This document shows, piece by piece, positions 5,137 through 61,309 of a DNA stretch of 64,000 nt. The notes beneath the pieces are model-generated. The model did not search any database. It had not been told where the DNA came from and saw nothing but the letters and a program-made list of their open reading frames with translations. The translations under genes were made by a program, and so were the position numbers. The stretch spans positions 562 to 64,561 of the forward strand of contig JAZUDJ010000088.1 of NCBI GenBank assembly GCA_045639585.1, written 5' to 3'. This DNA comes from Bacteroidales bacterium. GTDB lineage: Bacteria; Bacteroidota; Bacteroidia; Bacteroidales; UBA3663. Position 1 is the first letter of the stretch. Each line of letters begins with the position of its first letter.

Positions 5137-6111
5137 TCAGATCTCGTTATACAGTTTCTTTTCCTTCAGATTTTTAGCACGCTGCTCCTTATCTTTCTTT
5201 ATCTGCTGCTGAGCCTCTTCCAACGCCTTGGTGCGCTTCTTGAGCTCCTTAGCACGGTTGGCGCGACGCTTCTCGTTCTCCTTTTGAGCTCTCTTCAGCT
5301 TTTCTTCACGCTGCTTGGCTACACGCTGGCGATCTTTCTCTGTATAGCTTGGCTCCCAAGCATCATTCTCATCGGTCGTAAGGCTGACACGATTCACATT
5401 ATTATAACGTGAGCCAGGACGGTTCCATTGACGCTGGTGGAAATGATAAGTGAAACCTGTATGCAGCTTTACGAAACCACTCGTCGCGACACGGCTCTCT
5501 ACACCGTCATATCGGCCATCAGTAATCGTATAACCGCCTTCGAGCATCCAGTCCCAACTTGGAGATATACGGTAAGTGACAAGCAGACCAGCATGGGCGG
5601 CCCAACAGGTCTTGTCCCAGCAATCTACAGGATAGAACTCCCAGTCCTTTACCTTCTCATGATCGAAGTGGAATGACTCAAGACCACCGCCACCGAGGAA
5701 TGCCACCACATCAAAGGATGGACGATACTTCCTGCGAGGAGTGAACAATGTCGTCAAGTCAATCAACATATCACCGAAACCTGTCAGCACATTGAAATTA
5801 TAATGTGTGTCGTAAGTCTCAGGATCGCCCTCACGCTGCGCTCTACCTGGACGTCCTTTCTGGGGATTGAGGCCCAAACTCAATCGGAAACCCAATGCAC
5901 GGTTAACGAAAGTACCTACCTGCAATTCTCCACCAGGATAATTCTTGATGAAGTCATTGCTCGTAGCATTCTCTGCCAAGCTATGCGTCACACCAGCAGA
6001 TATACCAATCCACCAGTCGTTCTTGCGCATCGAGCGCGCCTTCTCCTGACCGAAGACCGTCAGGCATGACATCCATGCCAAAAGCAGAAATATGATTGAT
6101 TTTTTCATCAT
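5137..6111 (-). CDS. outer-membrane beta-barrel (porin/OmpA-N-like) protein with a Lys/Glu-rich C-terminal tail
   Basis: Signal peptide MMKKSIIFLLLAWMSCLTVFGQ and beta-barrel-like repeats. The last ~75 aa are KE-rich (EKLKRAQKENEKRRANRAKELKKRTKALEEAQQQIKKDKEQRAKNLKEKK). Start placed at 6111/6108 because a -7 box covers 6133-6140. Confidence 0.6.
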   Translation of the reverse strand: MMKKSIIFLLLAWMSCLTVFGQEKARSMRKNDWWIGISAGVTHSLAENATSNDFIKNYPGGELQVGTFVNRALGFRLSLGLNPQKGRPGRAQREGDPETYDTHYNFNVLTGFGDMLIDLTTLFTPRRKYRPSFDVVAFLGGGGLESFHFDHEKVKDWEFYPVDCWDKTCWAAHAGLLVTYRISPSWDWMLEGGYTITDGRYDGVESRVATSGFVKLHTGFTYHFHQRQWNRPGSRYNNVNRVSLTTDENDAWEPSYTEKDRQRVAKQREEKLKRAQKENEKRRANRAKELKKRTKALEEAQQQIKKDKEQRAKNLKEKKLYNEI

Positions 6112-6132
6112 AAACAACAAGTTATTCGCGTG

Positions 6133-6164
6133 CAAAAATACAGATTATTTTCGACACATGCAAA
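6133..6164 (-). promoter_or_regulatory. Bacteroidetes-type promoter for the OMP gene
   Basis: On the minus strand: TTTG (6164-6161), 20-nt spacer, then TATTTTTG (6140-6133), which matches TAnnTTTG. It lies 22 nt upstream of ATG 6111. Confidence 0.55.
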
Positions 6165-6213
6165 TTTTCATTCGCTTTTTTGCAATATGAGTGCAAATAA
6201 ATGTCTTGAAGTT

Positions 6214-7362
6214 TCAAGGGCGGAAAGAATTGACCCTCTTCACTACCTCTTCCACTTCTACATCCGCCAGCACGGGACTCATCGGCAGCGAGAGTTCCTG
6301 TGCACAAATCTGTTCTGTGATAAGCAACGACAGATGATGTAATTCCGGGTAACATTCCTGCTGATGAGGAGGTATCGGATAATGAATCTGCGTCTGGATT
6401 CCTTGCGAAGACAAATGCTGCTGCAAGGCGTCTCGATGGGTAGAAAGAACCGGGAAAATATGGTAGACAGAAGAGAGCGACATCTGCTCATACTTCTGCG
6501 AAGGAACAGCGACGAAGCTTTGCTCCATATTCTCATGATAGTATCGAGCGATTTCCTGACGTCGCTGGTTATCATCATCCAGATGGTGGAGCTTGACAGA
6601 AAGTATGGCCGCCTGCAGTTCATCTAATCGGCTATTGCGACCTTTATACTTGAACTCATATTTCTTATGGCTGCCATAGTTGGCCAACGCTCGGATGACC
6701 TCAGCCAACTCGGCATCATCCGTTGTTACCGCACCACCATCGCCTAAAGCTCCGAGGTTCTTGCTCGGATAGAAGCTGTGTGCAGCTGCATGGCCTAACG
6801 CCCCGGTCTTTCGGCAGCACCTCTCAGCACTCCGCACTCCACACTCCGCACTCCCAAGACCATGCGCCTGTGCATTGTCCTCCAGAACTAGCAGGCCATA
6901 TTTCTTAGCCAGTTCCCCAATTCTCTCAGTATAGGAGCATGCACCATAGAGATGCACCAACAGGATAGCTCGAGTGCGAGAACAGATGGACTGTTCTATC
7001 AGCGAGTCATCTATCTGCAGTGTATCGAGACGAGGCTCCACCAGCACCGGAGTCAATCCATTCTCTGAGATTGCCAGAATTGTCGCAATATACGTATTGG
7101 CAGGAACGATCACTTCATCTCCAGGAGCGATCTTTCCCAATTCCATATACGCTCGCAGCATGAGAATCAGTGCATCGAGACCACTAGCACAGGATATACA
7201 GTAACGGGTTCCGATGTATCGCGCATACTCCTCCTCGAAGCGTGTGCACTCCTCTCCAAGCAAATACCAACCTCGATCAATCACCCTGCGAGTTGCCTCA
7301 TGCAGTTCCTCGGCATAGCGTGCATTGATCTTCTGCAAATCCAGGAACTTAACCTCTCTCAC
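6214..7362 (-). CDS. DegT/DnrJ/EryC1/StrS-family sugar aminotransferase (PLP-dependent)
   Basis: Motifs EDNAQAHG and HSFYPSKNLGALGDGG (PLP-Lys region). GTG start at 7362-7360 overlaps the stop of the upstream GT4. A heptamer array sits between the two motifs. Confidence 0.9.
   Translation of the reverse strand: MREVKFLDLQKINARYAEELHEATRRVIDRGWYLLGEECTRFEEEYARYIGTRYCISCASGLDALILMLRAYMELGKIAPGDEVIVPANTYIATILAISENGLTPVLVEPRLDTLQIDDSLIEQSICSRTRAILLVHLYGACSYTERIGELAKKYGLLVLEDNAQAHGLGSAECGVRSAERCCRKTGALGHAAAHSFYPSKNLGALGDGGAVTTDDAELAEVIRALANYGSHKKYEFKYKGRNSRLDELQAAILSVKLHHLDDDNQRRQEIARYYHENMEQSFVAVPSQKYEQMSLSSVYHIFPVLSTHRDALQQHLSSQGIQTQIHYPIPPHQQECYPELHHLSLLITEQICAQELSLPMSPVLADVEVEEVVKRVNSFRP
6827..6854 (-). 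repeat. heptamer tandem array, 4 units, inside the DegT ORF (sense orientation)
   Basis: Plus strand GCACTCC GCACTCC ACACTCC GCACTCC. On the gene strand it is translated as SAECGVRSAE. Confidence 0.85.
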
Positions 7363-8584
7363 TAAGTACTTCTCTATAGAATTCGTAGAGTTTTTCTCTC
7401 ACAAATCCCTGCTCCCAACGCTCCGATATAATCTGACGAGCTCGCTTACCCATCTGCAGGCGCTCCTCCTCATGCTCCATCATCCAGCACATAGCCTCAT
7501 AAAGAGCATCAGCATCCTTCGATGGAACCATGACTCCATTCTCGCGGATACTCATTGTCTCCCCTGGCTGCAGATGCTGCGATACGTATTGTGAATCTAT
7601 CGCTTTAAGAATGATATCCCTGCATCCATTGATATCCGTCACGATCGATGCCAGCTCCATAGCACCAGCTTCGAGCACCGTATTCGGGAAACCTTCACGA
7701 TAGCTAGGGAATACGAAGCAATCAGCAGCGGCATAATATGCCAGCAGGTCTTCTATTGGTTTTGGACCTACCGCCTCAATCTCTGGCATCGTATCAATAA
7801 GGTGGCGTGTCTCTGGAGTAACGGGATCCAGATGATCCTCAATCCATCCGACCAGCACTAGACGACAACTTCTCCCTTCTCCCTTATTCTTTTTACTTTC
7901 AATAAGCTTGTTAAATGCAGCAACAAGCTCATTGATACCCTTATCGCCTACGATACGACCTACAAACAGAAACGTGAAGAGCTTTTTTCCATCAGGGGCA
8001 ATAGCTCCTAACTCCTCACTCCAAACTCCTACCATTTCTGGCTTTTGCCAGAATGAAAGATCTACTCCCTTCACATTACCATAGCCAAGAAGACGCATCG
8101 GCTTTTTGGTAATTCCGTAATTCTTCAGATCGTCGAGAACTCCGAGACTCTCAGGAATCACATGGGTGGCACAGGCGCAGGTTATTCTGTCGGTCATCAT
8201 CAGGATCTTACGCTTGATTCCTGATGTCGTTGGCCATATCAATCCTGTAAATGTATGAATACGATATGGAACTCTTGCCATCCATGCCGCCATCATACAC
8301 AGCAGACCAGCTTTCGGGGTCATGGAGTGCACCATATCCGGTTTCTCAGCGCGGAAGACACGATACAAAGCCCACAAGGCCTTCATATCCTTGACCAAAG
8401 AGATCTTTCTCTCCATCTCCACCCCGATGGTGCGGACATCCTCACGGGCAGCGACCTGCTTCAGATCCTCATCGGGTGAAGACACCGCTACTACCTCATA
8501 TCCTTGATCCTTCAAATCCTGTAAGATACCTTTACAGAAGATATTCAAGGATAGGCCGATCGTTGCACAACGTATAATTTTCAT
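7349..8584 (-). CDS. glycosyltransferase family 4
   Basis: FVFPSYREGFPNTVLEAGAMELASIVTDINGCRD (the E-x7-E region of the GT4/GT1 fold). Length 411 aa. Confidence 0.85.
   Translation of the reverse strand: MKIIRCATIGLSLNIFCKGILQDLKDQGYEVVAVSSPDEDLKQVAAREDVRTIGVEMERKISLVKDMKALWALYRVFRAEKPDMVHSMTPKAGLLCMMAAWMARVPYRIHTFTGLIWPTTSGIKRKILMMTDRITCACATHVIPESLGVLDDLKNYGITKKPMRLLGYGNVKGVDLSFWQKPEMVGVWSEELGAIAPDGKKLFTFLFVGRIVGDKGINELVAAFNKLIESKKNKGEGRSCRLVLVGWIEDHLDPVTPETRHLIDTMPEIEAVGPKPIEDLLAYYAAADCFVFPSYREGFPNTVLEAGAMELASIVTDINGCRDIILKAIDSQYVSQHLQPGETMSIRENGVMVPSKDADALYEAMCWMMEHEEERLQMGKRARQIISERWEQGFVREKLYEFYREVLSERG
8002..8029 (-). repeat. heptamer tandem array, 4 units, inside the GT4 ORF (sense)
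   Basis: Plus strand TAGCTCC TAACTCC TCACTCC AAACTCC. Translated as GVWSEELGA. Confidence 0.8.
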
Positions 8585-9237
8585 CCGAGTACGGTTTCAA
8601 GAATATACTTTATATCCAAAGACAGAGACTGATGGCGATAATACTCCAGATTGATTTTCACCTTATCCGGATAGATCACATAATCATTATACCACAGCGC
8701 AATCTCCTCATCGCTCATCGACGAGAACTCGACAGCAGGGCATTCACTCCTAACTCCTAATTCCTCACTCCTAACTTGATGAAGAAAATCTGCAATCAGA
8801 TTTTCCTCATCTCTGTACTTCAGCGTTGCCGGCCCCGTAATTCCAGGACGAAGCTCTAGCACCAATCGGTCCTCCCCGACCAACTTATCAGCATAGCCTG
8901 GGACATCCGGGCGCGGACCGACAAAACTCATGTCGCCGATAAAGACATTCCACAATTCAGGCAGTTCGTCGAGCTTATATTTGCGAAGCTTTGCGCCCAA
9001 TGGAGTGATACGCGCCTCTCCAGCCACACTCACGCTGCTACCGCCATGGCTCACAGTCATCGAGCGGAACTTATACATCGTGAACAGATCGCCATGCAGC
9101 CCCACTCTCTTCTGCTTGAAAATCGCAGGTCCTCCCGGCATCTTTACCTTTATTAATATAGCTACAACGATCAGCACCGGCCATAACAGCAGTAGCCCGA
9201 TCAGTGCCATCACTCTATCAAATATCCATTTACTCAT
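8581..9237 (-). CDS. small bacterial sugar transferase (PglC/WcfS-type polyprenyl-phosphate hexose-1-phosphate transferase), likely the initiating enzyme
   Basis: N-terminal re-entrant helix, then FTMYKFRSM and DELPELWNVFIGDMSFVGPRP. At 218 aa it is slightly longer than the ~200 aa I expect for this family, and it carries a heptamer array. Confidence 0.9.
   Translation of the reverse strand: MSKWIFDRVMALIGLLLLWPVLIVVAILIKVKMPGGPAIFKQKRVGLHGDLFTMYKFRSMTVSHGGSSVSVAGEARITPLGAKLRKYKLDELPELWNVFIGDMSFVGPRPDVPGYADKLVGEDRLVLELRPGITGPATLKYRDEENLIADFLHQVRSEELGVRSECPAVEFSSMSDEEIALWYNDYVIYPDKVKINLEYYRHQSLSLDIKYILETVLG
8744..8778 (-). repeat. heptamer tandem array, 5 units, inside the sugar-transferase ORF (sense)
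   Basis: Plus strand TCACTCC TAACTCC TAATTCC TCACTCC TAACTTG. Translated as VRSEELGVRSEC. Confidence 0.85.
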
Positions 9238-9260
9238 AGCCTAAGCGTTATCAGCAAAAT

Positions 9261-9274
9261 TCACTCCTCACTAA
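9261..9274 (-). repeat. two heptamer units forming the 3' end and stop codon of the GNAT gene
   Basis: Plus strand TCACTCC TCACTAA. On the gene strand this reads ...CTT AGT GAG GAG TGA (LSEE-stop). Confidence 0.5.
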
Positions 9275-9875
9275 GAGGCAGGTCCTCAATGAGCAGATCT
9301 CCATGCTCCAGTTCCTGCAATATCACCTGCTTCAGCACCGCCCCTGTCGACCGCATCGAAGCCATATTATTCTTATTAATAGACTCGAACATCCTGACTC
9401 CCAGTGTCACAGCCACATCCATCGCAGCCTTGCACATCATCTTGCCGATGCCCTGCCCCTGATGTGCATGATCCACCATCTTGCCAAGATAAGTCTGTCC
9501 ATGCACAAATGATCGCAAGAAGAAATATCCTACAATCTCCTTTTTATCACTTTCCTCATAAGCCTCCGCCACAAACATCATAAACGACGTCCTTTTCAGC
9601 AACACCTTGAGTGATTCGACATCAAATCCATGAGGTCTGAAGAACTCAAAATCCCCCTCCGGCTGTTTCGCAAAAAACTGAGCCAACGCCTCCGCATCCG
9701 CCACCACAGCCTCTCGCAGCAGTACCTTCTCCGTACTGTTCTTCGCCAGCACTCCAGCAATCTTCTTCAGTGATTTGCGATACCTGATCCCGAAAGCAGC
9801 AGAATTCATCCCCTCCGCCACTTCCCAGAGCCATCCCATGTGGTCGCGCAGTAAATGTGCAAGTTTATATAGCAT
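9261..9875 (-). CDS. GNAT-family N-acetyltransferase
   Basis: HAHQGQGIGKMM (the Q/RxxGxG/A acetyl-CoA loop). Lies between the aminotransferase/initiating-transferase genes and the GT genes. Confidence 0.8.
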   Translation of the reverse strand: MLYKLAHLLRDHMGWLWEVAEGMNSAAFGIRYRKSLKKIAGVLAKNSTEKVLLREAVVADAEALAQFFAKQPEGDFEFFRPHGFDVESLKVLLKRTSFMMFVAEAYEESDKKEIVGYFFLRSFVHGQTYLGKMVDHAHQGQGIGKMMCKAAMDVAVTLGVRMFESINKNNMASMRSTGAVLKQVILQELEHGDLLIEDLPLSEE

Positions 9876-9888
9876 AATAATCAGCTGT

Positions 9889-10704
9889 TCAAATACTCAT
9901 TACCTTGATCTGGAGTCCACGCTTCGCCAAAAAACGATTCGCCCACTTAAACAAGTAATAAGTCAAGTTCTTTTTCCTTGGTTTCTCCAACATTCTAAGG
10001 TCGAGACGACCTTGATTGAAAGGCGTCCATGAATGGAAATGGAAATGGATACAAACCACATCATCCATTCCCTCATACTTAGGAGAATCGAAAAATCTGG
10101 CAGGATAGACATGGATGTCCTCTCGAAGCACTTCCTCCTTCCCTACCTCCAGAATTGGACCTCGATATCCATAGTTCTCCGAAGCAATCAATGTCTGAAT
10201 AAATGGCATCGGACGCATATCCATCCGTAACGCCTCAGGAAGCGTTAAGTTCTCCGACCTCACAAAATGACGCTCTCGGTAATAATCGACACATTCTTTG
10301 AGGAACGGATGTCCTTTCTCTGCGCCAAAACAATGAGAAGTCAGCAAGTTGGCATGCTGGCAACATCCTTCCAGCAGAAACTCCTCAGCATGTTCCTTTC
10401 CGATGAACATACGATGATGAAGGAACGAATCGAACGATTTATAAACCGCCACATCACCATCCAACCAGATTCCTCCCTGAGTGTATACAGCATACACACG
10501 TATTGCATCAGCCGCAAATGCCCACTTTCGAGCTGCCGCAGCCTCCTTGGCAAAAAGCAGACCTGAAGCTTCGAGCGCTTCCCGGTCCCAGCATACAAAG
10601 GTATAATCCTTCAGATGCTCCTGCCAGGTAGCCATCATCTCCTTAAATGATGCCGGCATCTCTTCTCCAGAAAACCAGCTATAATGAATGATCTTTGGTA
10701 TCAT
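9889..10704 (-). CDS. GT32-like glycosyltransferase (DXD sugar-binding region)
   Basis: MIPKIIHYSWFSGEEMP and GGIWLDGDV. Clear paralogue of 47211-48029. Confidence 0.8.
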   Translation of the reverse strand: MIPKIIHYSWFSGEEMPASFKEMMATWQEHLKDYTFVCWDREALEASGLLFAKEAAAARKWAFAADAIRVYAVYTQGGIWLDGDVAVYKSFDSFLHHRMFIGKEHAEEFLLEGCCQHANLLTSHCFGAEKGHPFLKECVDYYRERHFVRSENLTLPEALRMDMRPMPFIQTLIASENYGYRGPILEVGKEEVLREDIHVYPARFFDSPKYEGMDDVVCIHFHFHSWTPFNQGRLDLRMLEKPRKKNLTYYLFKWANRFLAKRGLQIKVMSI

Positions 10705-10710
10705 ACGTAG

Positions 10711-11721
10711 TTATGCATTACGTTTCAATCGAGGCAGAATCCACGGCACAAAGACATGCCGATAGCACCAGCCGCCAAGGGAATACCTGCCATAGCCAGC
10801 CATCATCCATCCCATACATTGCCCGACGCGACCTGCTTGGGTCAATGGCAGACCACCTACTTCTTGCATTTTATCTGTAATAGTGCGCCACTCCTGTCGA
10901 CAATAATTTGCCGATAAAGCGCGACTTAGACAAGGAATCATCTGCTGCTGGATATAGGTCTGCATCTTCTGCTGCAGTTCCAGAAGTCGTGTGCCATACT
11001 CTTTCATGCTCGTCATCATCTGCAGATAACTATCGACTATCCGACGCATCTTCTCCGGGTTGCGTGTCGTAGTCATCGAATCTGGCTCCACCACATACCT
11101 ATATATATTAGCGCGCACGGAGATCATCCTCGGATTCGCCATCATCAGATCCAAACAAAAAGCTGCATCATCACAAAGCGTATAGTTTCGGAATCGCACC
11201 TCATGACACATCACAAAGTTCTTTCGGATCAGCAACTGCCACACAAAATACGGCATCATCGTCTGGTAGAATCCATGGCCATCACCCGCATAGTCGATGC
11301 TCAGGTCTATCTCCGTAGGTTCTTTCCAATGCTTTCGGGAGTAGTCATCCATCGTACGCGAGGAGAATCGGATCAAATCAATCTCATCACTCCAGTGCTG
11401 TCGCAGTATAGCAGCATACGCTCCAGCCACCAGATAGTCATCTGCGTCGCAGAACGTTATGATCTCGCCTCGCGCCTCCTCAATGCCACGGTTCCTAGAG
11501 GCCGGACACCCTAAATTCTGAGGATTCTCAATCAGTCTTACCGACGCGCCCGATCTTCCTTCGTAGCTCCTTATGATCTCCTTCGATCCATCCGTCGAAC
11601 CATCGTCTACGCATACGATCTCCATCTCTTCCTCACTCAAACCCTGATTCAGCAACGATTCAAGGCAACGAGGCAAAAACTTCTCGGCATTATAGACAGG
11701 TACAATGACAGACAACAGCAT
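10711..11721 (-). CDS. glycosyltransferase family 2
   Basis: LSVIVPVYNAEKFL, VDDGSTDGS and FCDADDY. I prefer ATG at 11721; the ORF track begins at TTG 11727. Paralogue of 26166-27182. Confidence 0.85.
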   Translation of the reverse strand: MLLSVIVPVYNAEKFLPRCLESLLNQGLSEEEMEIVCVDDGSTDGSKEIIRSYEGRSGASVRLIENPQNLGCPASRNRGIEEARGEIITFCDADDYLVAGAYAAILRQHWSDEIDLIRFSSRTMDDYSRKHWKEPTEIDLSIDYAGDGHGFYQTMMPYFVWQLLIRKNFVMCHEVRFRNYTLCDDAAFCLDLMMANPRMISVRANIYRYVVEPDSMTTTRNPEKMRRIVDSYLQMMTSMKEYGTRLLELQQKMQTYIQQQMIPCLSRALSANYCRQEWRTITDKMQEVGGLPLTQAGRVGQCMGWMMAGYGRYSLGGWCYRHVFVPWILPRLKRNA

Positions 11722-11730
11722 CGGCAATTC

Positions 11731-11765
11731 TACCTTTTCACTATTAACTGTTAACTTTTATCTTA
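11731..11765 (-). repeat. degenerate heptamer array, 5 units, across a gene junction
   Basis: Plus strand TACCTTT TCACTAT TAACTGT TAACTTT TATCTTA. On the gene strand it supplies the C-terminus KIKVNS and three consecutive in-frame stops, TAA TAG TGA (11746-11738). Confidence 0.6.
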
Positions 11766-12880
11766 AGCGCATACCCTGGAATGCTTCTATATTCCTCCGA
11801 ATGCACAAATCGCCATGCATCCACCAATCCCTGCACAAAATAGATCGGTATCCTCAAATCAAGCAGCAGGACGCCAGCAATAATATTGACCAGCAGCAAC
11901 CACACACATTTCAGCACGAAAGCTGTAACAAGAGCGGCTTGAGACGAAGAATTTACTCCAAACTCCTCACTCTTCGAGCCCTCAGCTAAAGCTTCGTCTT
12001 CTCGCCAAGAGCATAAAAATGCTCTTGCTATTGGCTGCGAGGACCTCACTCCTAACTTAATTCTGTACCATATTATCGCAGACATCAGCGACCTGATATA
12101 ATACTTCTTATGCGTATGATGATACACCGAGCTTGCCGTCTTCGCATTGAGGTAATTCACTCCTGCATCATAGTTGAGCATGAGCTTACCTCCATTGACG
12201 AAGCACTTGAATGATTCCACCAGGTCATCACCGTATGCGAACTCCGAGAGCCGGTCCATCCATAGCTCATCCTCCCAGTGGAGTGATAGGAGCGAAGACC
12301 TCTTCCACATCACACACGGGCCATCCAGTTTCTGCGTTGGCAAACATAATCCAGAATCACACTTCTTAGCATCCCGAATCTCTGCAATCTTTCGCTTTGA
12401 GAGATAGCTGAACGCTCCCGTGCGAGTCACCTTATACGCCCACTTAACATCATAATGAGGAGCCACCCAGTTGGTCAGGATAGCAAAAGTCTTCAGACCA
12501 AGACTCATATCCTGATCCTTGAAACAGTCGGCACCCATCGCATCCACATCATGCGCCACCAAGCTCTTGAGCAATCGCTCTGCCGTATCCGGAGCCAGCT
12601 CCACATCGTCATCGAGCAATAGCAGATAAGGCGATGTCAATTCATCGTATGGCAATGCACGCTGTGCCACCATGCCCTTCTTGACATAGCGATACTCCTC
12701 ACGACCGATTGTTCCGTCCACGAACTTCACGCCACATGTCTCCGCCACATATACGATCACCCTCTCCGGCTGTATCGTCTGGCGAGCAATGGACTCCAGC
12801 TCCTGTCTGAACTTTTCTCCTGCCGTACCAAGTGTACGTATCGCTATCGAATATTTAGGTATCAATTCCTCACACCTCAT
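11744..12880 (-). CDS. GT-A fold (GT2-like) glycosyltransferase with a C-terminal membrane segment
   Basis: YSIAIRTLGTAGEKF and LLLLDDDVEL. Paralogue of 17871-18836 but 32 codons longer near the C-terminus. Confidence 0.7.
   Translation of the reverse strand: MRCEELIPKYSIAIRTLGTAGEKFRQELESIARQTIQPERVIVYVAETCGVKFVDGTIGREEYRYVKKGMVAQRALPYDELTSPYLLLLDDDVELAPDTAERLLKSLVAHDVDAMGADCFKDQDMSLGLKTFAILTNWVAPHYDVKWAYKVTRTGAFSYLSKRKIAEIRDAKKCDSGLCLPTQKLDGPCVMWKRSSLLSLHWEDELWMDRLSEFAYGDDLVESFKCFVNGGKLMLNYDAGVNYLNAKTASSVYHHTHKKYYIRSLMSAIIWYRIKLGVRSSQPIARAFLCSWREDEALAEGSKSEEFGVNSSSQAALVTAFVLKCVWLLLVNIIAGVLLLDLRIPIYFVQGLVDAWRFVHSEEYRSIPGYALKIKVNS
11953..12059 (-). repeat. composite insert: heptamer units at both ends plus a 9-bp hairpin
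   Basis: TTACTCC AAACTCC TCACTCT (11953-11973). Hairpin CAAGAGCAT-AAAA-ATGCTCTTG (12006-12027). TCACTCC TAACTTA (12046-12059). This corresponds to the extra peptide SQPIARAFLCSWREDEALAEGSKSEEFGVNSS that the paralogue lacks. Confidence 0.7.
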
Positions 12881-12897
12881 TCCTCGCTCCTAACTAT
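12863..12897 (-). repeat. heptamer array, 5 units, spanning a stop/start junction
   Basis: Plus strand CAATTCC TCACACC TCATTCC TCGCTCC TAACTAT. On the gene strand: AGT TAG GAGCGAGGA ATG AGG TGT GAG GAA TTG. The upstream stop, a 9-nt purine spacer and the downstream ATG all lie inside the array. Confidence 0.8.
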
Positions 12898-13591
12898 ATT
12901 GGGCCATCCCCAACATCTCCTGCACTCTGTGCCATACCTGTGTTATCTTGCTTCGATAGTACGCCATCTTCCCGTGAGGAGACTTCGTAAACCAATGGAT
13001 GCTGAACGTATTCTCCGTCTTCTTCAGCACTCCAGTCAGATCATTATACGGACACATCCAGTCTCGCGGCAGGATCTCCGCCTCCAGCACCTTTTGCCTC
13101 TCGCCATTAGTCTTTAGTCCATTGGCAAGCATGGCTTCCGTATTCAACTGCGGGCAACCCATGATCTCCGTCAAGTTCTCATACATTCCCAGCATCGCTT
13201 GCACAGCCGGATGATGAGCCGCAGCAGCAAAACCCAGACCCGTATTGATATACTCCTTAGTCTCCCAGCCAAACCAGGCCGACACCTCGTCCGACTCCAG
13301 CAGTTCCGTCGGTCTTCGCACCAGCTCTACATCCGTATCGAAGTAGAAACCACCTTCATGCTCCACCACGATCAGTCGTACCACATCGCTCAAATAGGCC
13401 CAACGCCTCTGCTCATACGCCATCTTGGCATACGGGTGGCAATTCACATCGAAGTTCTGCTCATTCCACTCCTTGATTTCAAAGTCTGGCAAGTACTTCT
13501 TCCAGCTCTCGATGCATTTCTTGGCCGATGCTGGTAACGGATTACCACCGAACCAACAATAATGTATTATCTTCGGAATCATCTGAAACAA
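12890..13591 (-). CDS. GT32-like glycosyltransferase (DXD sugar-binding region)
   Basis: MIPKIIHYCWFGGNPLP and FYFDTDVEL. Confidence 0.75.
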   Translation of the reverse strand: MFQMIPKIIHYCWFGGNPLPASAKKCIESWKKYLPDFEIKEWNEQNFDVNCHPYAKMAYEQRRWAYLSDVVRLIVVEHEGGFYFDTDVELVRRPTELLESDEVSAWFGWETKEYINTGLGFAAAAHHPAVQAMLGMYENLTEIMGCPQLNTEAMLANGLKTNGERQKVLEAEILPRDWMCPYNDLTGVLKKTENTFSIHWFTKSPHGKMAYYRSKITQVWHRVQEMLGMAQYS

Positions 13592-14250
13592 ATCGTAAAT
13601 AGGCTCTTGGCGTAGCTATCAGCCAGCAAATAGTAATATCGGACAAGAGACAAGTTGCTCCGGTTCATTCGGATCGCCGTCCTTCCCTGCCTGCGTCTCA
13701 ATAAATATTTCTCCTTATCATACTTCTCTGGTCTTCGATAGATAATCAGCGGTTCCTGCAGGAATCCGAAAGTCGAAATCTTTCGCGTCCTCGTCCACAG
13801 ATCCCAGTCCTCGCACCCATCGCACTCACTCCGGTAAGGATGCTCACGGAACCACTCCGTCCGTCCCATCACCGACGGATGGATGAACGTCCATTCTCCT
13901 GCTCCCGTGCCACACACATCCACCTCGGGATGCTCCTGCAGATACTTTACCTGTAATGCCAGTCGCTCCGGCAGCATCACATCATCTGCATCCATACGCG
14001 CGAAGTACTCTCCCCGCGCCATCGCCACCTGCTGGTTCAGTCGATAAGAAATACCATGATGTTCTCCATCAACCTGCAGAACAATTCGGTCATCCTTCAA
14101 ATACTCCTTAATGATTTCAACCGAACAGTCAGACGAACCATCATCAGTAATGAAGAGTTCCCAATCCTCATACGTCTGAGCCAGAACAGACTCAATTGCC
14201 TCTCCTATCCATTTCTCTGCATTATAAACCGGAAGACCAATTATAATCAT
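13579..14250 (-). CDS. glycosyltransferase family 2 (short form)
   Basis: IIGLPVYNAEKWI, ITDDGSSDCS and ARMDADDV. Confidence 0.8.
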   Translation of the reverse strand: MIIIGLPVYNAEKWIGEAIESVLAQTYEDWELFITDDGSSDCSVEIIKEYLKDDRIVLQVDGEHHGISYRLNQQVAMARGEYFARMDADDVMLPERLALQVKYLQEHPEVDVCGTGAGEWTFIHPSVMGRTEWFREHPYRSECDGCEDWDLWTRTRKISTFGFLQEPLIIYRRPEKYDKEKYLLRRRQGRTAIRMNRSNLSLVRYYYLLADSYAKSLFTICFR

Positions 14251-14301
14251 CAGAAATCTCTATCGGCAAGAAAAATTACAAAAATCGCTTAAAAGCATTT
14301 A

Positions 14302-14323
14302 TTTTTGCCGATACCGGCAAAAA
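14302..14323. terminator. weak A/T-extended hairpin in an 84-bp intergenic gap
   Basis: TTTTTGCCG-ATAC-CGGCAAAAA. Only 4 G:C pairs, so it is a weak candidate. Confidence 0.3.
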
Positions 14324-14334
14324 TCATAGTCGAA

Positions 14335-15600
14335 TTACTCACACAGCTTATAGATCTTCTCGATCTCCGACTCATTGCCATAATCATGCTCTGACAGATA
14401 CTCAGTCAATGAGCTCAGCAACTTCTCATCCTTGATTACCTTAATCATCGCCTCAGCACACGCCTCACGCTCCAATGGCACAATCACTCCATCCACACCA
14501 TCCTGCACCTGCGACGGCGCCGTAGGATAATGCGTCACAATCACCGGCTTGCACAATATCTGCGCCTCCCTCACCGTAATGCTTTTCCCTTCATACCGCG
14601 AAGGCTGTACATAGATATCGCACGTACGGATATATGGATAAGGATTCGACTGCTTGCCAAGTAGAATCACGTGCTCCTCCATCCCTTCCTTGCGAATCTC
14701 ATCCCTCACCTGTTGCTCAATCTCAGGACTTCCGTAGCCGATAATGTACCACTTGACATTCCTACCTCCAAACTCTTCACTCTTACTTATGTCGTCGACC
14801 AATCGCCGACATAAGTAAGGAATGTCTTCCATCTTCTTAGCCTTCGAGTATCGTCCTATCGTCAAGAGCTTTAAATAATGATCCTGCTCAAATATAGGGC
14901 AAGACTCCTGACTTCTCTGACGAATAAAACGCGGAGATAGAATATTCTCGATATCAATAATCTTATTTTTCAAAGAAGGGAATACCTCCACGAACTTAGC
15001 CGATACATCAGGAGAAATAGAAGAGATCACATCCAGACGCTCCCACATGCGCAGCTCCATCTCCCGATTGATGAATACATTCGTATAGTCCGTGTGGATC
15101 CATCCAAGCTTCTTCTTCGCACGGACTTTATCCAGTACAATATAATGAGGTGTCAGAAACGAAATTGCCAGATCATATTCCACCTCAGGATTAATCTTCG
15201 GCAAACACTTCACAGTCCTATGCTGCTGAAACACAACATGCGCATTACTCTCCAGCCCCTTAACATTACGCTTCAGATATCTCTTATCCTCCCATCTACC
15301 CCAAAGTCGAGCAAGAGCCAGTCGCCAGTATCCTTTCTTTATCAGCAACGCTATCGGCTCTTCCAGCATCGCATAAGCCTCCACCTCCGGCAGCAATCTA
15401 AATCTAGGGACAATCTGGCATTCCTCACTCCTCACTCCACACTCCTCACTAATATAATGCATCAACTCCCCTCTATGCGCATAAATAAAAACATCCACCT
15501 CTGAACGAACAGGATCCACACTCTGCAGCAAGCCGAGAAGTGCCATCTCAGCACCACCCAGCTCCATATAATGCATCGCTATAAGAATCTTCGGCCTCAT
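14335..15600 (-). CDS. glycosyltransferase family 4
   Basis: IYVQPSRYEGKSITVREAQILCKPVIVT. Carries two repeat insertions (14763-14819 and 15418-15452). Confidence 0.8.
   Translation of the reverse strand: MRPKILIAMHYMELGGAEMALLGLLQSVDPVRSEVDVFIYAHRGELMHYISEECGVRSEECQIVPRFRLLPEVEAYAMLEEPIALLIKKGYWRLALARLWGRWEDKRYLKRNVKGLESNAHVVFQQHRTVKCLPKINPEVEYDLAISFLTPHYIVLDKVRAKKKLGWIHTDYTNVFINREMELRMWERLDVISSISPDVSAKFVEVFPSLKNKIIDIENILSPRFIRQRSQESCPIFEQDHYLKLLTIGRYSKAKKMEDIPYLCRRLVDDISKSEEFGGRNVKWYIIGYGSPEIEQQVRDEIRKEGMEEHVILLGKQSNPYPYIRTCDIYVQPSRYEGKSITVREAQILCKPVIVTHYPTAPSQVQDGVDGVIVPLEREACAEAMIKVIKDEKLLSSLTEYLSEHDYGNESEIEKIYKLCE
14763..14819 (-). repeat. heptamer units fused to a 13-bp perfect hairpin inside the GT4 ORF
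   Basis: TACCTCC AAACTCT TCACTCT (14763-14783). Hairpin CTTACTTATGTCG (14782-14794) / CGACATAAGTAAG (14807-14819). Translated as PYLCRRLVDDISKSEEFGGRN. Confidence 0.75.
15418..15452 (-). repeat. heptamer tandem array, 5 units, inside the GT4 ORF (sense)
   Basis: Plus strand GCATTCC TCACTCC TCACTCC ACACTCC TCACTAA. Translated as ISEECGVRSEEC. The reverse complement of 15427-15446 equals 23100-23119. Confidence 0.85.
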
Positions 15601-15636
15601 GGAATATTAGTTTTTCTTCGTTATGGGATTATTTAC

Positions 15637-15671
15637 GAACTCCTCACTCCTAGTTCCTCACTCTTCATTAA
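15637..15671 (-). repeat. heptamer tandem array, 5 units, filling an intergenic gap
   Basis: Plus strand GAACTCC TCACTCC TAGTTCC TCACTCT TCATTAA. The reverse complement of 15638-15667 matches 21994-22023 at 28/30. Confidence 0.85.
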
Positions 15672-16806: not shown

Positions 16807-17874
16807 TTAATTCGTTTCAGAAATGTACAAGATGGCATATTGCTCTGCCATTTTTCCTATATCAAATTTCTGTGCACGTGCAAAACAGTTAGTACCTACT
16901 TCAACAGCATAGTGTTTATCGGTGCAGCATTGACGAATCTTGAATGCTAAAGAATCCGAGTCTTGGTGCGGGAAAAGGATTCCTGCCCCTGAAACGATAT
17001 CATGAAGTCCCTCGACATCACTAGCGATAAAAGGTTTGCCAGATGCCAACCCCTCTATAGAGGACAAAGATAAACCCTCATAATGAGACGAAAGCACCAC
17101 AACATCGCTACAAGCAAGTATTTCAGGAATATCACTACGATTGCCCAAGAAGAAAATCCTATCACCAGAAGCGAACTGCTTTGCAAATTTTTCCGTTTCG
17201 TTGCGAAGCTCACCTTCTCCGACTAATTGTAAGATATAATCATTAGGCAACAGATCAAAAGCCTTAATCAACGTCTTATGATCTTTCTGTGCTCGAAATG
17301 CAGCCACCATAGTAATGACTTTTTTGCCATCAGTTCTTTTCTCTTGAGGGGTATCCATTTGAAATCGCCTCAAATCAATGCCATTATAAATAGTAACTAT
17401 CTTTTCTGACTCGCCGATGTAGTCCACCAGATTCTTCCGAGCCTGGTCTGAAATGCAGATTATTTTCTTATATTGACAATACATCCACAGATCACCTAGT
17501 TTTAGATACCATTTACCACGCCTACGATTCGTTGTATTATGCTCTGTAGTCAATAATGAAACCTTAGGGAGAAACACACCTGCCATAGCCACAAACAGCT
17601 GACAAGCAGTATTATGAGTATGCACTACATCATAATTCTTGATAAGCGAGAAAAGCGAAAAGATATTGCGTGGATCATAAACACTTCCTCCAAGACGCAA
17701 AGGAATTATCTTTATGCCTTCATTCTCCAGATCTTGATAAAACGCTGTCCTAATACCATCAAACACACAAAGATCCACCTCATGACCCATATCACGAAGC
17801 CTTGGCAGAAGATCTACCATCAATTTTTCTGCACCTCCTGTGCGTAGGGAAGTTATAACGTGCAGGATCTTCAT
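16807..17874 (-). CDS. glycosyltransferase family 4
   Basis: VVVLSSHYEGLSLSSIEGLASGKPFIASDVEG, plus N-terminal ITSLRTGGAEK. Confidence 0.85.
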   Translation of the reverse strand: MKILHVITSLRTGGAEKLMVDLLPRLRDMGHEVDLCVFDGIRTAFYQDLENEGIKIIPLRLGGSVYDPRNIFSLFSLIKNYDVVHTHNTACQLFVAMAGVFLPKVSLLTTEHNTTNRRRGKWYLKLGDLWMYCQYKKIICISDQARKNLVDYIGESEKIVTIYNGIDLRRFQMDTPQEKRTDGKKVITMVAAFRAQKDHKTLIKAFDLLPNDYILQLVGEGELRNETEKFAKQFASGDRIFFLGNRSDIPEILACSDVVVLSSHYEGLSLSSIEGLASGKPFIASDVEGLHDIVSGAGILFPHQDSDSLAFKIRQCCTDKHYAVEVGTNCFARAQKFDIGKMAEQYAILYISETN

Positions 17875-18836
17875 TTTTTATAACTATTAAACAACGGAAT
17901 CTGGCAATATTCTGAAGAATGTACAAATTGCCATGCATCAAGAACTCCTCTTACATATAAATATGGAATTCTAATATTTTTAAATGCAATCGCAGAAATA
18001 CAATTCACAAAAAATAGCCATATAACTTTAGTACAATATATTATAGCAACTACAGTCTTGCATGATCTTACTTGAAAACAAGTTCTCCACCAAAGTATAA
18101 AACTGCTTTTTGACCGAACATAAAACTTCCTTTCATTGCTATGGTATGCCGCACTAGAAGATTTTCCATCTAAATGGTCAATGCCACAATTATAATGAAC
18201 TAACAGCTTAAAACCATTGACATACACCTTGTGGAATTCCAACAAATCGTCCCCATAAGCAAAGCCTAGACTATCAAGGAACAATTCATCCTCAAGATGC
18301 AAATTCAATAATGTATCTTTCCGCCACAAAGAAGCAGGCCCTGCACAAGATTGAGACAGATAATAATCTTTTATTGGATTATTTAGATAGCTGAAACCAC
18401 AGTGGCTATGCATTTTAAATGCCCAATTCTTGTCAGAATGAGGGTAAATCCAATTTGTCAGCAGTGCAAAAACCTTTGACGTCAAAGCCATATTCTGGTT
18501 TTTGAATGTATCTGCACCAACAACATCCGCATTCTCCGTTTTTGCGACTCCCAATAATTTGCTCACACTATCTGGAGCTAATACCACATCATCATCCAGC
18601 AATAAAATGTAATCGGACTCAATCTCCGCATAAGGTAAAGCTCGTTGAGCTACCATTCCCTTTTTTACCCAAACATATTCCTCCTTACCAATCTGAAAAG
18701 ATGGCCGATCATAACCTTCTGCAATATAGATTAAAACCTTATCCGGTTGAATTGTTTGCTTCGATATTGAGTCTAATTCTCGCACAAACTTATCACCAGA
18801 GGTTCCTAATGTTCGTATTGCAATAGAATAACTCAT
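17871..18836 (-). CDS. GT-A fold (GT2-like) glycosyltransferase, paralogue of 11744-12880
   Basis: MSYSIAIRTLGTSGDKF and LLLDDDVVL. ATG at 18836 sits 1 nt from the upstream stop. Confidence 0.7.
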   Translation of the reverse strand: MSYSIAIRTLGTSGDKFVRELDSISKQTIQPDKVLIYIAEGYDRPSFQIGKEEYVWVKKGMVAQRALPYAEIESDYILLLDDDVVLAPDSVSKLLGVAKTENADVVGADTFKNQNMALTSKVFALLTNWIYPHSDKNWAFKMHSHCGFSYLNNPIKDYYLSQSCAGPASLWRKDTLLNLHLEDELFLDSLGFAYGDDLLEFHKVYVNGFKLLVHYNCGIDHLDGKSSSAAYHSNERKFYVRSKSSFILWWRTCFQVRSCKTVVAIIYCTKVIWLFFVNCISAIAFKNIRIPYLYVRGVLDAWQFVHSSEYCQIPLFNSYKK

Positions 18837-22024: not shown

Positions 22025-24280
22025 TTCGACGCGAACCAAATATCTTTTGATACCATGAAGAATGCGGCATTCAAAACCCTGACGGCCAAGCGCAGCACCT
22101 AAGGCTCTGACATTCAGCTTTGCCGACGGATTGTAGTAATTGATTCGCGCTGCAATCTCCGCCGCAGTCATCCACTTGCTGTCGCTCAGCGGTTGGCCAT
22201 CCTCTCCAAGATTAGGTTGGTGTACATAGACACTGCACAGTTCCACCTCAACGCTCTGCGACACATACTGCTCATTGTGCTTGTCGAGCTGTCGGATGTC
22301 CTGCTGGCTCATCACAAACATCCCAGCCTCATGCTGCGCCAGATAGAGAGCTTGCGCGTAAATATGTTCGTAGTCGGGACGACACTCGAAAGGATTGACG
22401 GTAAAGCGACGCACCGTAAATGTCAGCCAGCGGCGGTTGCCTGTCGGGTCGGTCAGGAAGTCGGCGCGATTGCCCGTAGCGCAGAACGTAGCGATACGCG
22501 GCATGGTACGTGGCGACTTGTCGTATGGCAAACGTTCGCGGATCACATCGAGCGTGACGAGAGACTTGAGTTGATTGACCTCCACCTCGCTCATCGCATC
22601 GATCTCCTCCAGGTTAATCAATCCGCACTCGGCCAGCTGGATGCGGTCGTCCTTGTCGAGGTTGCGGAAGCGCATCTGCTCCTTATAATAAGCGCGAAGC
22701 TCCGGTGGCATCAGCATACGCATCCACGAGGACTTGCCTATGCCCTGCGCACCGATGAAAGTCAGGATTGTGCCATGGGTGCTCGACATGTGAATCCAGC
22801 CGTGCACCATCGCCACCATCCAGCGCTTGAAGAAGTCGTCGAGCAAGGCGCGCGTCTCCTCGCCACCCTCCACCTCCACCGTCTGGATCAGCTCGTGAAG
22901 GTAGTCCTTATCACCAGGCTTCCACAATCCTTGCAACGGCTGCAGATACGCTATAATAGGATTGTAGGGCAATGAGCAGGTGTCACTCTGAAGGACATTA
23001 TACACGTCGGTCGATGTGGTGGTCAATGCAGTTTCCTCAAAGAACAGGCGCATCAAGGTGGCGACATCCGAGTCGTGCAACTCGTAATAGTGTGGAATTA
23101 GGAGTGTGGAGTGAGGAGTTTTTCCACTCTCGCACAAAGATCCGACCAAAGCCAATGACGACAGGTTACGCTGAGCGTATTGAGCCATTTGCGAGCCTTC
23201 ATTCCACTCGACCTCCAGTCGGTGAGAGATCATATTCTTGCGATACGTTCCCTGACTCAGCAAAAACGCCTCGATGTCAGCCGACGTGGCGCGATGCACC
23301 TTCTTCTCGCTGTTTTTCTGCTGGTTAGGCAATCGAAGTGTACCGAACTCTGCCTGCTTCGACTCGTAAATGCTCTTCACCACGCTCGTGATACCACGCT
23401 CTCCGTCACCATAATAGAAGTAGCGCTCCTTAGCCTCAGCCAGCGCCTCTTCCTGCTCGATGCCATAGCGATTGACCTCATAAATGACGGTGCTAAGGAA
23501 CTTGTTCAACGTGCCATGCTTCGCCTCAAATCCTTGCGTCTTGGCAAAGGCCTCAGCGGCATCAAAGGCTCTGGACAGCTGCGTCTTGACAGGTCGTCCC
23601 ACCGGATTGCCCGTCGCCATATGGGCCTTGCTCTGCTCAAAGTCGAGCAAAGCCTGGCTTAAGATAACGGTATAGGGCTGATAGTTATCCTTAAAATACT
23701 TAGCCTCAGGATCGTATGCCATAGCACTCGGTCGCGCTGCATCCTTACACTGCGTATCGACACGGAGATCCTTCAGCGTCGGAGCATTCGAGAACCACTC
23801 CTCAAACTGGCGGCGCACATCCTCCCAGATGGCATTCCACAGCAGGCGTGAGCGCTGACTCTTCTTCGGATCACGGAAGTCGAGCTCCGCCAAGTCCATC
23901 GGCTGCATATCGTGATAGCACACCTGATAGGCCACGATGACGTGCAGGCCCTTGCCGCTCAACGACCGGTGATAGCCAACGACATGCATCAGCATACCGA
24001 GGTAAGCGACCATGTATTCCATCTGCTTCTCATCCAGATGGTCATAGTCGAAGTAAAGCAATCCAGTGAGCTGCTTGATATTCTCCGTCTTCCTGCCACC
24101 CTCCATGATGGCCGACGGTACGAACACCGGCACGCGCTGCTTTTGCCCCACTCCCTGACGGTGCATCTCTGTCTGCATCCGCAAGTCCTGATCCGTCTTT
24201 ATTTTCGTAAAGACGTCGCCCAGCGACACTATCTGCGGGGGGGTAGACAGTAGATTATTGAAAGTTGAAACGGTTTCCAA
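22022..24280 (-). CDS. VirE-like P-loop NTPase with an N-terminal primase-like (VirE_N/BT4734-like) region
   Basis: Walker A FIGAQGIGKSSW. 752 aa with a large N-terminal domain. TTG start at 24280, 9 nt after the HTH gene stop. The family call comes from remembered architecture, not a search. Confidence 0.75.
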   Translation of the reverse strand: METVSTFNNLLSTPPQIVSLGDVFTKIKTDQDLRMQTEMHRQGVGQKQRVPVFVPSAIMEGGRKTENIKQLTGLLYFDYDHLDEKQMEYMVAYLGMLMHVVGYHRSLSGKGLHVIVAYQVCYHDMQPMDLAELDFRDPKKSQRSRLLWNAIWEDVRRQFEEWFSNAPTLKDLRVDTQCKDAARPSAMAYDPEAKYFKDNYQPYTVILSQALLDFEQSKAHMATGNPVGRPVKTQLSRAFDAAEAFAKTQGFEAKHGTLNKFLSTVIYEVNRYGIEQEEALAEAKERYFYYGDGERGITSVVKSIYESKQAEFGTLRLPNQQKNSEKKVHRATSADIEAFLLSQGTYRKNMISHRLEVEWNEGSQMAQYAQRNLSSLALVGSLCESGKTPHSTLLIPHYYELHDSDVATLMRLFFEETALTTTSTDVYNVLQSDTCSLPYNPIIAYLQPLQGLWKPGDKDYLHELIQTVEVEGGEETRALLDDFFKRWMVAMVHGWIHMSSTHGTILTFIGAQGIGKSSWMRMLMPPELRAYYKEQMRFRNLDKDDRIQLAECGLINLEEIDAMSEVEVNQLKSLVTLDVIRERLPYDKSPRTMPRIATFCATGNRADFLTDPTGNRRWLTFTVRRFTVNPFECRPDYEHIYAQALYLAQHEAGMFVMSQQDIRQLDKHNEQYVSQSVEVELCSVYVHQPNLGEDGQPLSDSKWMTAAEIAARINYYNPSAKLNVRALGAALGRQGFECRILHGIKRYLVRVE
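23094..23121 (+). repeat. heptamer tandem array, 4 units, inside the VirE-like ORF (antisense orientation)
   Basis: GGAATTA GGAGTGT GGAGTGA GGAGTTT. Read on the gene strand as KTPHSTLLIP. Confidence 0.85.
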
Positions 24281-38645: not shown

Positions 38646-39488
38646 CTATACGGTATCCATAAAGTTGCGCTCGGTATGAGAAAAGACAATGACGCTTAGG
38701 AAGAGGCCGACAAACATGAAGATGGTGCTGTAGAGGAGTCCTCCCCAATCAAGAGTGCCACATCCGAGGCTGGAGTATTTGAAAGCCTCGAAAATAGGAG
38801 TCAAAGGATTTAGGGCAATGATTTCGCGATACTTCTCTGGAGCGGCGCTCAGTGGATAGATGACTGGGGTGGCATACATGAATAGCTGGATGCCAAACTG
38901 AATGAGAAACTTGAGGTCGCGATACTTTGTGGTCAGCGAGGAGATGATCAGACCCCAGCTCATAGAATGGAGAGCGAGCAATACCACTAAAAGTGGGAGA
39001 ATGAGGAGTGAGGAATGAGGAGTAAGGAATTGACCTGCTTGGGTAAAGAACTTGAAATAGAGATATACCATTATGAAGAGGACGAGCTGAATGAGCATCT
39101 TCAGCAGGTTGCTCGTAGCAATGCTGAGGGGCACCACCAAACGTGGGAAATAGACCTTACCAAACACGTTGGCATTAGCAGAGAAGATATCAGAGCAAAG
39201 GGTGAAGGTCTCACTGAAATAATTCCAGAGCAAGATGCCAGCCATGTAAAAAAGTGGTTGAGGTGCCCCATCGGTACTGATGCCGGCTAGTCCACCAAAC
39301 ACAAACATGTACATAATGGTGGTAAAGACGGGCTGGATGACATACCATAACGGTCCAAGGATAGTCTGCTTGTACTTGGTGACGATATCACGCTTGACAT
39401 ACATGACATAAAGGTCGCGATAGCGCCATAAACCTTTGATATCAATATCCAATAGGCCTCGACGTGGGGTGATTACATGTTCCTGCAT
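38646..39488 (-). CDS. wzm: ABC-2 type polysaccharide exporter permease (Wzm/TagG/KpsM-like)
   Basis: 280 aa with six hydrophobic helices and an ABC-2 pattern (KYKQTILGPLWYVIQP). The ATPase partner lies 8.5 kb upstream at 48037-49317. Confidence 0.8.
   Translation of the reverse strand: MQEHVITPRRGLLDIDIKGLWRYRDLYVMYVKRDIVTKYKQTILGPLWYVIQPVFTTIMYMFVFGGLAGISTDGAPQPLFYMAGILLWNYFSETFTLCSDIFSANANVFGKVYFPRLVVPLSIATSNLLKMLIQLVLFIMVYLYFKFFTQAGQFLTPHSSLLILPLLVVLLALHSMSWGLIISSLTTKYRDLKFLIQFGIQLFMYATPVIYPLSAAPEKYREIIALNPLTPIFEAFKYSSLGCGTLDWGGLLYSTIFMFVGLFLSVIVFSHTERNFMDTV
38998..39032 (+). repeat. heptamer tandem array, 5 units, inside the wzm ORF (antisense orientation)
   Basis: AGAATGA GGAGTGA GGAATGA GGAGTAA GGAATTG. 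Read on the gene strand as FLTPHSSLLIL. Confidence 0.85.
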
Positions 39489-61306: not shown

Positions 61307-61309
61307 GTC

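Follow-up and report, generated by a model that had tools for sequence, protein, structure and literature searches.

Introduction

Rickettsia palindromic elements (RPEs), reportedly described by Ogata and co-workers in 2000, are said to be short, hairpin-forming, multicopy repeats that lie in frame within genes. Intragenic MITEs are known from Coxiella (PMC5896051), and modular intergenic repeats such as the pneumococcal BOX and the Neisseria Correia elements are treated in a review by Delihas (PMC2229807).

The locus analysed here is a stretch of 64,000 nt (the window, to which all coordinates refer unless an L-numbered contig is named). In one of its glycosyltransferase genes a short tandem array of heptamers is interrupted by a structured 72-bp sequence, which we call the core.

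The host gene and its paralogue

The gene at 11744-12880 (minus strand) belongs to a capsule/polysaccharide locus and encodes a GT2-type glycosyltransferase of 378 aa, PF00535 being found in its homologues. The product has no exact match on a protein record, and its closest orthologues in the homologue search are 350-354 aa long. A preliminary description of this DNA had paired the gene with that at 17871-18836, also on the minus strand, and had located 32 extra residues between the conserved WxR and RIP anchors. We confirm both points: the two GT2-type proteins are paralogues (44% identity, E 2e-107), and their alignment has a single 32-residue gap in the WxR-RIP interval, with 12 more gap residues outside it. 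The gap is made of two layers, an array-coded, disordered linker (the heptamer array of the host gene codes for GVRSEEFGV) and a 72-bp insertion. In the AlphaFold2 model of the 378-aa product (pTM 0.73) residues 277-312, that is, array plus insert, have a pLDDT below 50 and are flanked by helices 258-277 and 311-338; the prediction is consistent with a tolerant linker.

A 72-bp insert in a heptamer array

The boundaries of the insert were read from orthologues. Contigs L001, L002 and L003 are 93-95% identical to the window over the gene, carry an intact array at this position (site A), TTA GGAGTGA GGAGTGA GGAGTTT GGAGTAA, and show an exact 72-bp gap. The core thus occupies 11972-12043 or, since one G is ambiguous, 11973-12044 (minus strand), equal to 24 codons (SQPIARAFLCSWREDEALAEGSK plus one residue). 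On the gene strand it reads TCCTCGCAGCCAATAG-CAAGAGCAT-TTTT-ATGCTCTTG-GCGAGAAGACGA-AGCTTTAGCT-GAGGGCTCGAAG, and the residues that it encodes on read-through include SSQPIARAFLCSWREDEALAEGSK. It lies at GG^AGTGA within the second unit of (GGAGTNA)4, TTAGGAGTGAGG^AGTGAGGAGTTTGGAGTAA, and separates a 5' part of the target array, TAAGTTA GGAGTGA GG (12044-12059, minus strand), from a 3' part, AGTGA GGAGTTT GGAGTAA (11953-11971, minus strand); the two parts are contiguous in the empty alleles. Filled and empty alleles differ by exactly 72 bp, without target-site duplication. A search by eye for terminal inverted repeats gave a weak match only: CCTCGCAGC on the left can be set against GCTGAGG close to the right side if a 2-nt indel is allowed, and the match lies inside the 72-bp unit.

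The proteins agree with the DNA. The closest homologues, P0001 and P0002, are 97% and 95% identical at aligned positions, lack the 24 residues and read ...KLGVR|SEEFGV(K/N)SSSQ..., so that the heptamer-coded peptide is kept. All 18 aligned homologues (of 120 listed) lack the segment, and all are shorter than the 378-aa query. From these comparisons we take the insertion into the host gene to be genuine and recent.

The preliminary description had proposed an in-frame element of about 96 bp with heptamer ends and a 9-bp hairpin. That an in-frame insertion exists is borne out, the heptamer units are present at 11953-11973 and 12046-12059, and the hairpin at 12006-12027 is perfect; the 107-nt stretch folds better than its shuffles (z = -3.3). 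What was inserted, however, is the hairpin-bearing core of exactly 72 bp and not the heptamer repeat: because the orthologous contigs hold an intact array and no duplication, the heptamers are the pre-existing target rather than the ends of the element. The pair GGAGTGAGGTCCTCG...GGAGTAAATTCTTCG, an imperfect direct repeat that had been read as a duplicated target or a recombination scar, does not stand either: the empty alleles already contain its right copy, and TCCTCG in the left copy, GGAGTGAGGTCCTCG, represents the first six insert bases. Nor can the gene serve as an internal control for the heptamer family behaving as an inserted element, heptamer periodicity being already present at the orthologous position of the more distant contig L035.

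Copies at other sites

L001 is syntenic with window positions 5851-15601 at 94-96% identity and has the reciprocal arrangement. Its site A is empty, and a second site about 4 kb from A (site B) is filled by 100% identical 72 bp (L001 10824-10895), whereas in the window A is filled and B is empty. Site B is a heptamer array at 8004-8031 (minus strand) in a GT4 gene (7349-8584), with the equivalent insertion point between 8021 and 8020; the GT4 protein has 411 aa in the window versus 435 or 438 aa in filled alleles. A second filled allele of site B, with an identical core, is found in L037 (P0140, 438 aa), which comes from an unrelated ENA study. Site C is a heptamer array at 15420-15450 (minus strand) in a GT1 gene (14335-15600); empty in the window, it is filled in L034 by a variant of 69 bp that keeps both ends but has another hairpin, AAGGCTT-GATA-AGCCTT, the arms of which still pair. 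Past the site C array and core, in L034 1102-1371, homology to the GT1 gene, the window and L001 all ends, and the GT1 frame runs on into unrelated sequence and stops after 131 aa. Since homology to the GT1 gene is lost past that copy, array and core mark a rearrangement breakpoint.

The three in-gene copies share the junctions GGAGT(G/T)AGG|TCCTCGCAGCC...GGGCTCGAAG|AGTGAGGAGT. Inserted into GT2, GT4 and GT1 genes with lengths of 72, 72 and 69 bp, they have the same orientation and the same reading frame; in all three genes the insertion is thus in frame, free of stops and polymorphic between relatives, the pattern by which RPE-like repeats are recognised. The core is open in three of its six reading frames. 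Its length being a multiple of three, with no stop in frame, the host gene of site A would gain 24 extra linker residues by read-through, and we infer that the insert is tolerated because it is translated in this way. From one heptamer to the next, the reading frame of an array moves by one; together with the open frames this means that the choice of unit needs no cause beyond selection for read-through.

The core is 100% identical in window site A, L001 site B and L037 site B, in genes that differ by about 4.4%; the probability that 72 nt remain unchanged is about 0.04 per pair and about 0.009 for three lineages. The 72-bp core is, then, a small mobile module that was recently acquired at site A.

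Direct searches with the insert returned little. A scan of genome contigs with the 22-nt hairpin gave just two unrelated terminator hairpins from other Bacteroidota, and the insert had no match in viral contigs or in a plasmid collection. Peptides from the three open insert frames retrieved only P0121 and two sense-frame variants retrieved nothing; such short queries are too insensitive to speak for rarity, as both searches missed P0139, which holds the exact peptide.

The core family

A 24-nt core query against metagenome contigs returned 28 loci. Derived from these and from additional copies located by pattern, the family consensus is (A/G)GGTCCTCGCAGC, a short linker, a variable hairpin and then GCGAGAAGACGAAGCTTTAGCTGAGGG (GCGAGAAGACGA-AGCTTTAGCT-GAGGG). 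A covariance model built from 27 copies (R1) has 44 matches in 254 kb of metagenome loci, and the core is accordingly small, non-coding and multicopy, as a MITE is. In the 64-kb window R1 finds one copy only (68.6 bits, E 6e-19), the next best match scoring 11.8 bits.

Three helices are predicted, all on the minus strand. The variable hairpin P2 (12006-12027) has a 9-bp stem and a 4-nt loop, supported by folding and covariation: among 30 distinct sequences, seven of eight pairs have changed on both sides and still pair, and 97% are paired, counts that lean towards the model structure because the alignment was fitted to that of R1. The small hairpin P3 (11984-11993, AGC-UUUA-GCU) covaries too, AGC/GCU becoming GGC/GCC (A-U to G-C) in five sequences. 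The outer helix P1 (11996-12045), taken from the RNAalifold consensus, pairs GGUCCUCGC (12037-12045) with GCGAG (12001-12005) and GAC (11996-11998); its first G belongs to the heptamer array and its second G is the ambiguous boundary base. P1 is invariant across the family and so lacks support from covariation, which speaks neither for nor against it. About 25 invariant nucleotides surround the covarying hairpin.

The contexts of the family vary. Many metagenome copies lie within units of about 250-300 bp (type 1) bounded by inverted GGAGTTAA-type arrays. Others sit within an outer helix of the CCCCCT/AGGGGG type, sometimes followed by a run of T, and have no heptamer array. In one context an arm whose sequence is otherwise CATGG|AGTTAACGG has the junction CATGG|TCCTCGC where it takes up the core, and 5 nt of it are replaced; the left junction is here again GG^AGT, in an array of another type. 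The left junction GG|TCCTCGC is common to the three in-gene copies and to the type 1, type 2 and type 5 metagenome copies, and these three types have GGAGT- or GAAGT-type repeats on the 5' side.

Several single loci deserve mention in their own right. L031 4231-4303 is a family copy without the entire variable hairpin, and in L028 2849-2983 a degenerate copy lies inverted about 30 bp from an intact one, as a REPIN-like doublet. L025 and L030 differ by a 29-bp deletion that ends exactly at the 5' boundary of the core. TGAAAAT-type heptamer runs follow type 1 cores in metagenome loci, e.g. in L017. The core-carrying metagenome contig L010 also holds a copy of the Bacteroidetes FopS sRNA (239-306; RF04319, 69 bits), which supports an origin of this contig in Bacteroidota.

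We find no description of the family in the resources searched. Queried with the core in three to four contexts and with E up to 10, Rfam 15, which covers ribozymes and Bacteroides sRNAs, gave no family match, the overlaps being chance-level only (at most 17 bits), and no Rfam family reached its gathering score anywhere in the window. In the literature, searched with sequence strings as well as topics, we found no description of the core motif or of Prevotella heptamer arrays. An intrinsic terminator was rejected, as no T-run follows the hairpin and the terminator scan was empty. An HDV-like fold, prompted by UCCUCGC and checked by eye, was likewise rejected, its P3 and P1.1 pairings not being conserved.

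Heptamer arrays as landing sites

The window holds eight arrays of at least three NNACTCC units, versus none in each of 20 shuffles, and all eight lie within long ORFs. The imperfect (GGAGTNA)n arrays of 3-5 units inside ORFs are located at 6829-6854, 8004-8031, 8746-8776, 14763-14783, 15420-15450, 23089-23119, 38999-39030 and 57298-57329; one more, at 15639-15667, lies between ORFs. At least two polysaccharide loci contain them. The arrays run with or against the host gene, and translate as GVRSEE(F/L/C)-type peptides in the sense orientation and as NSSLHTPNS-type peptides in the opposite one.

In L035, a syntenic and more distant contig whose GT4 gene is 87% identical, degenerate purine-rich sequence of heptamer periodicity is already present at sites A and B, and for these two sites we reject the idea that the arrays are fresh insertions or excision footprints. 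Phase variation at a simple-sequence contingency locus was rejected as well: the arrays consist of 3-5 imperfect units and do not change in length between the window and L001. Outside the A and B sites, the arrays of these two sequences show 2 differences in about 130 nt.

Some neighbouring features were recorded. The array at 8746-8776 adjoins a hairpin at 8778-8811 with a 15-nt stem, GATGAAGAAAATCTG / CAGATTTTCCTCATC (93% complementary, 4-nt loop), which lies in a sugar-transferase ORF (8581-9237), is conserved in L001 and falls outside the core family. Just upstream of the site B array is a 7-bp hairpin (8036-8053; TTCTGGC-AAAA-GCCAGAA on the gene strand), beside which 9 bp (AAGCCAGAA) are duplicated in L037, adding an extra KPE to the protein. 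A different heptamer array, (GTAATTT)3.9 at 231-257, is found just upstream of a GT2 gene (264-1220), and window positions 61306-64000 contain very few long ORFs.

Routes of spread

The explanation that we favour, and to which we would give an even chance of being right, has two layers, in which a structured module resides in a pre-existing array and combines spread in trans with local, array-guided copying. A structure-dependent step at the DNA level, carried out on a short target by an enzyme acting in trans, would take the family to unrelated places. Within a locus, gene conversion or template switching, assisted by homology, would then copy the module from one heptamer array to a near-identical one 4 kb away. 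Such an event would have brought 15 and 17 nt of array flank along with the core and overwritten the recipient's native flanks, for a net gain of 72 bp. Inside genes, the surviving copies would be those that are in frame and stop-free.

The evidence for the local layer comes from the A/B pair. Window site A and L037 site B share an identical block of 104 nt (15 + 72 + 17 nt). Relative to the native empty allele, the flanks of the filled site B differ at 4 of 45 positions, in all four cases towards the sequence of site A; a net gain of exactly 72 bp means that the flanks were exchanged for other sequence rather than lengthened. At site A, filled and empty alleles have the same flanks, a pattern that suggests A as the donor and B as the recipient that was converted. 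The surplus of flank changes at site B reaches only marginal significance, and a pull towards the array consensus could also produce it; the homology of 12-17 nt per side is short for RecA-dependent conversion. On these modest statistics, the sequences lean towards copying guided by array similarity as the best fit for the A/B pair. Family members in unrelated contexts, such as the CCCCCT/AGGGGG copies that have no array, indicate that a short-target step with an enzyme in trans would be needed as well. The nine ORFs scanned at both window ends include no transposase. In the metagenome loci, no cognate Y1 (HUH) transposase was found beside a core repeat. The only Y1_Tnp gene seen there (PF01797, E 1.4e-24; 147 aa, L019 6562-7006, minus strand; IS200-like/RAYT-like) is flanked on both sides, within L019 6200-7600, by its own repeats, GACCGCAACGCGGTCACCCCGTCAATAGCCGTGGGT, which differ from the core. 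L019, which carries two cores, thus also carries a separate system of the REP/RAYT type.

A strong rival, which we consider possible and yet somewhat unlikely, is site-specific transposition pure and simple. The core would then be a minimal, non-autonomous single-stranded DNA transposon moved in trans by a Y1/HUH-like enzyme, inserting 3' of GG without duplication and excising precisely, and the A/B pattern would be a local hop. The clean empty site, the single orientation and the one GG|TCCTCGC junction of the in-gene and type 1, 2 and 5 copies are what such a transposon would leave. Between its hairpins and its ends there are 16 nt on the left and 12 nt on the right, a spacing comparable to that at the ends of IS608; covarying structure next to invariant flanking sequence is expected of a site recognised by a protein; and genomes that carry the family encode Y1 transposases. 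The empty site B of the window, however, is not a product of precise excision, given its four flank differences, the second hairpin has just 3 bp, the sole Y1 gene seen has another REP on its flanks, and no full-length parent element was found. Orientation bears on this reading and on the one that follows. At the nine intergenic loci inspected, some copies are co-oriented with the neighbouring genes and several are opposite to them, a mixture that favours a role at the DNA level over a cis-acting RNA. That the core is in the first place a functional RNA (a self-cleaving ribozyme, a processing or stability element, or a protein-binding motif), with its spread secondary, is improbable in our view, even though about 25 invariant nucleotides around a covarying hairpin, a covarying 3-bp helix, several G-U pairs on the strand as drawn and those copies in which an outer helix is followed by a T run, like the 3' end of an RNA, would all suit it. 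Against it also stand the lack of a match in Rfam 15, the absence of covariation in P1, the failure of the HDV-like fold by eye and the fact that the in-gene copies all keep frame, which would be needless if the RNA were cut or removed.

The opposite polarity, an ancestral segment deleted in other strains, is effectively refuted, as is an assembly artefact. Deletion between direct heptamer repeats is conceivable in principle, but the 18 homologues that lack the segment range from 97% to 49% identity at aligned positions, and a deletion between the flanking AGTGAGG repeats would take 79 bp and leave three units, where the empty alleles have four. The occurrence of the same sequence at two other loci, in independent ENA assemblies, argues against an artefact. 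A more far-reaching proposal, of which we are doubtful, is that the core represents a hitherto undescribed kind of minimal mobile module, one that would find GGAGT-type short tandem repeats by base-pairing and use the arrays as landing pads. The GG of the target would complete the P1 helix of the module (GGUCCUCGC/GCGAG..GAC), so that the target would be recognised by base-pairing within a folded single strand; arrays in capsule glycosyltransferase genes would let the module add or remove loops of 23-24 residues and, as in L034, mark breakpoints.

If confirmed, this would be a clean case from gut Bacteroidota of a small structured repeat that enters protein genes without breaking them, at an unusually specific target, one position of a 7-bp tandem repeat, for which empty and filled alleles are both known. 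The core defines a multicopy motif of about 70 nt that is strongly conserved, has covarying helices and lies outside Rfam 15; it could be the substrate of a recombinase or a functional RNA. As all three in-gene copies are in capsule/polysaccharide glycosyltransferase genes, the system may add to the diversity of surface-polysaccharide loci. For annotators there is a caution, namely that 'extra loops' in glycosyltransferases can be selfish DNA.

Comparison with known systems

By analogy, the behaviour of the core appears closest to that of RPEs and other in-gene MITE-like repeats. Like RPEs and, reportedly, the intragenic MITEs of Coxiella, it is at most about 100 bp long, non-coding, hairpin-forming and multicopy, stands in frame, is translated as extra loop residues and varies in presence among close relatives. 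The likeness to RPEs is one of behaviour, and no sequence similarity is expected. Unlike these elements, the core resides in another phylum, in a Prevotellaceae-like Bacteroidota (a label taken from the name of one 44%-identical homologue), and consists of about 25 invariant nucleotides plus a covarying hairpin instead of one long palindrome. It is also set apart from them by its target, a specific point, GG^AGT, in a short tandem heptamer array; from a classical MITE, by the absence of target-site duplication and apparently by the want of clear terminal inverted repeats, for which the search by eye gave that weak match.

With REP/REPIN plus RAYT and the palindrome-associated elements of the IS200/IS605 type the core shares insertion without duplication, in fixed orientation, 3' of a short specific target, as well as hairpins next to conserved single-stranded sequence and a minimal size of tens of nucleotides. 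It departs from them in that no linked Y1 transposase was found, in that its second hairpin has 3 bp, and in its evidence of flank co-conversion, which those systems are not known to produce. To the BOX and Correia repeats the family is similar in being modular (the units of about 250-300 bp with inverted GGAGTTAA-type arrays) and in occurring both between and within genes. The window copy differs from them as a bare 72-bp core with direct and not inverted heptamer flanks, apparently without the usual terminal inverted repeats, and without a duplication of TA or of any other sequence. What is distinctive of the core is the combination of homing to one heptamer position, a target base that completes an invariant helix and signs of array co-conversion.
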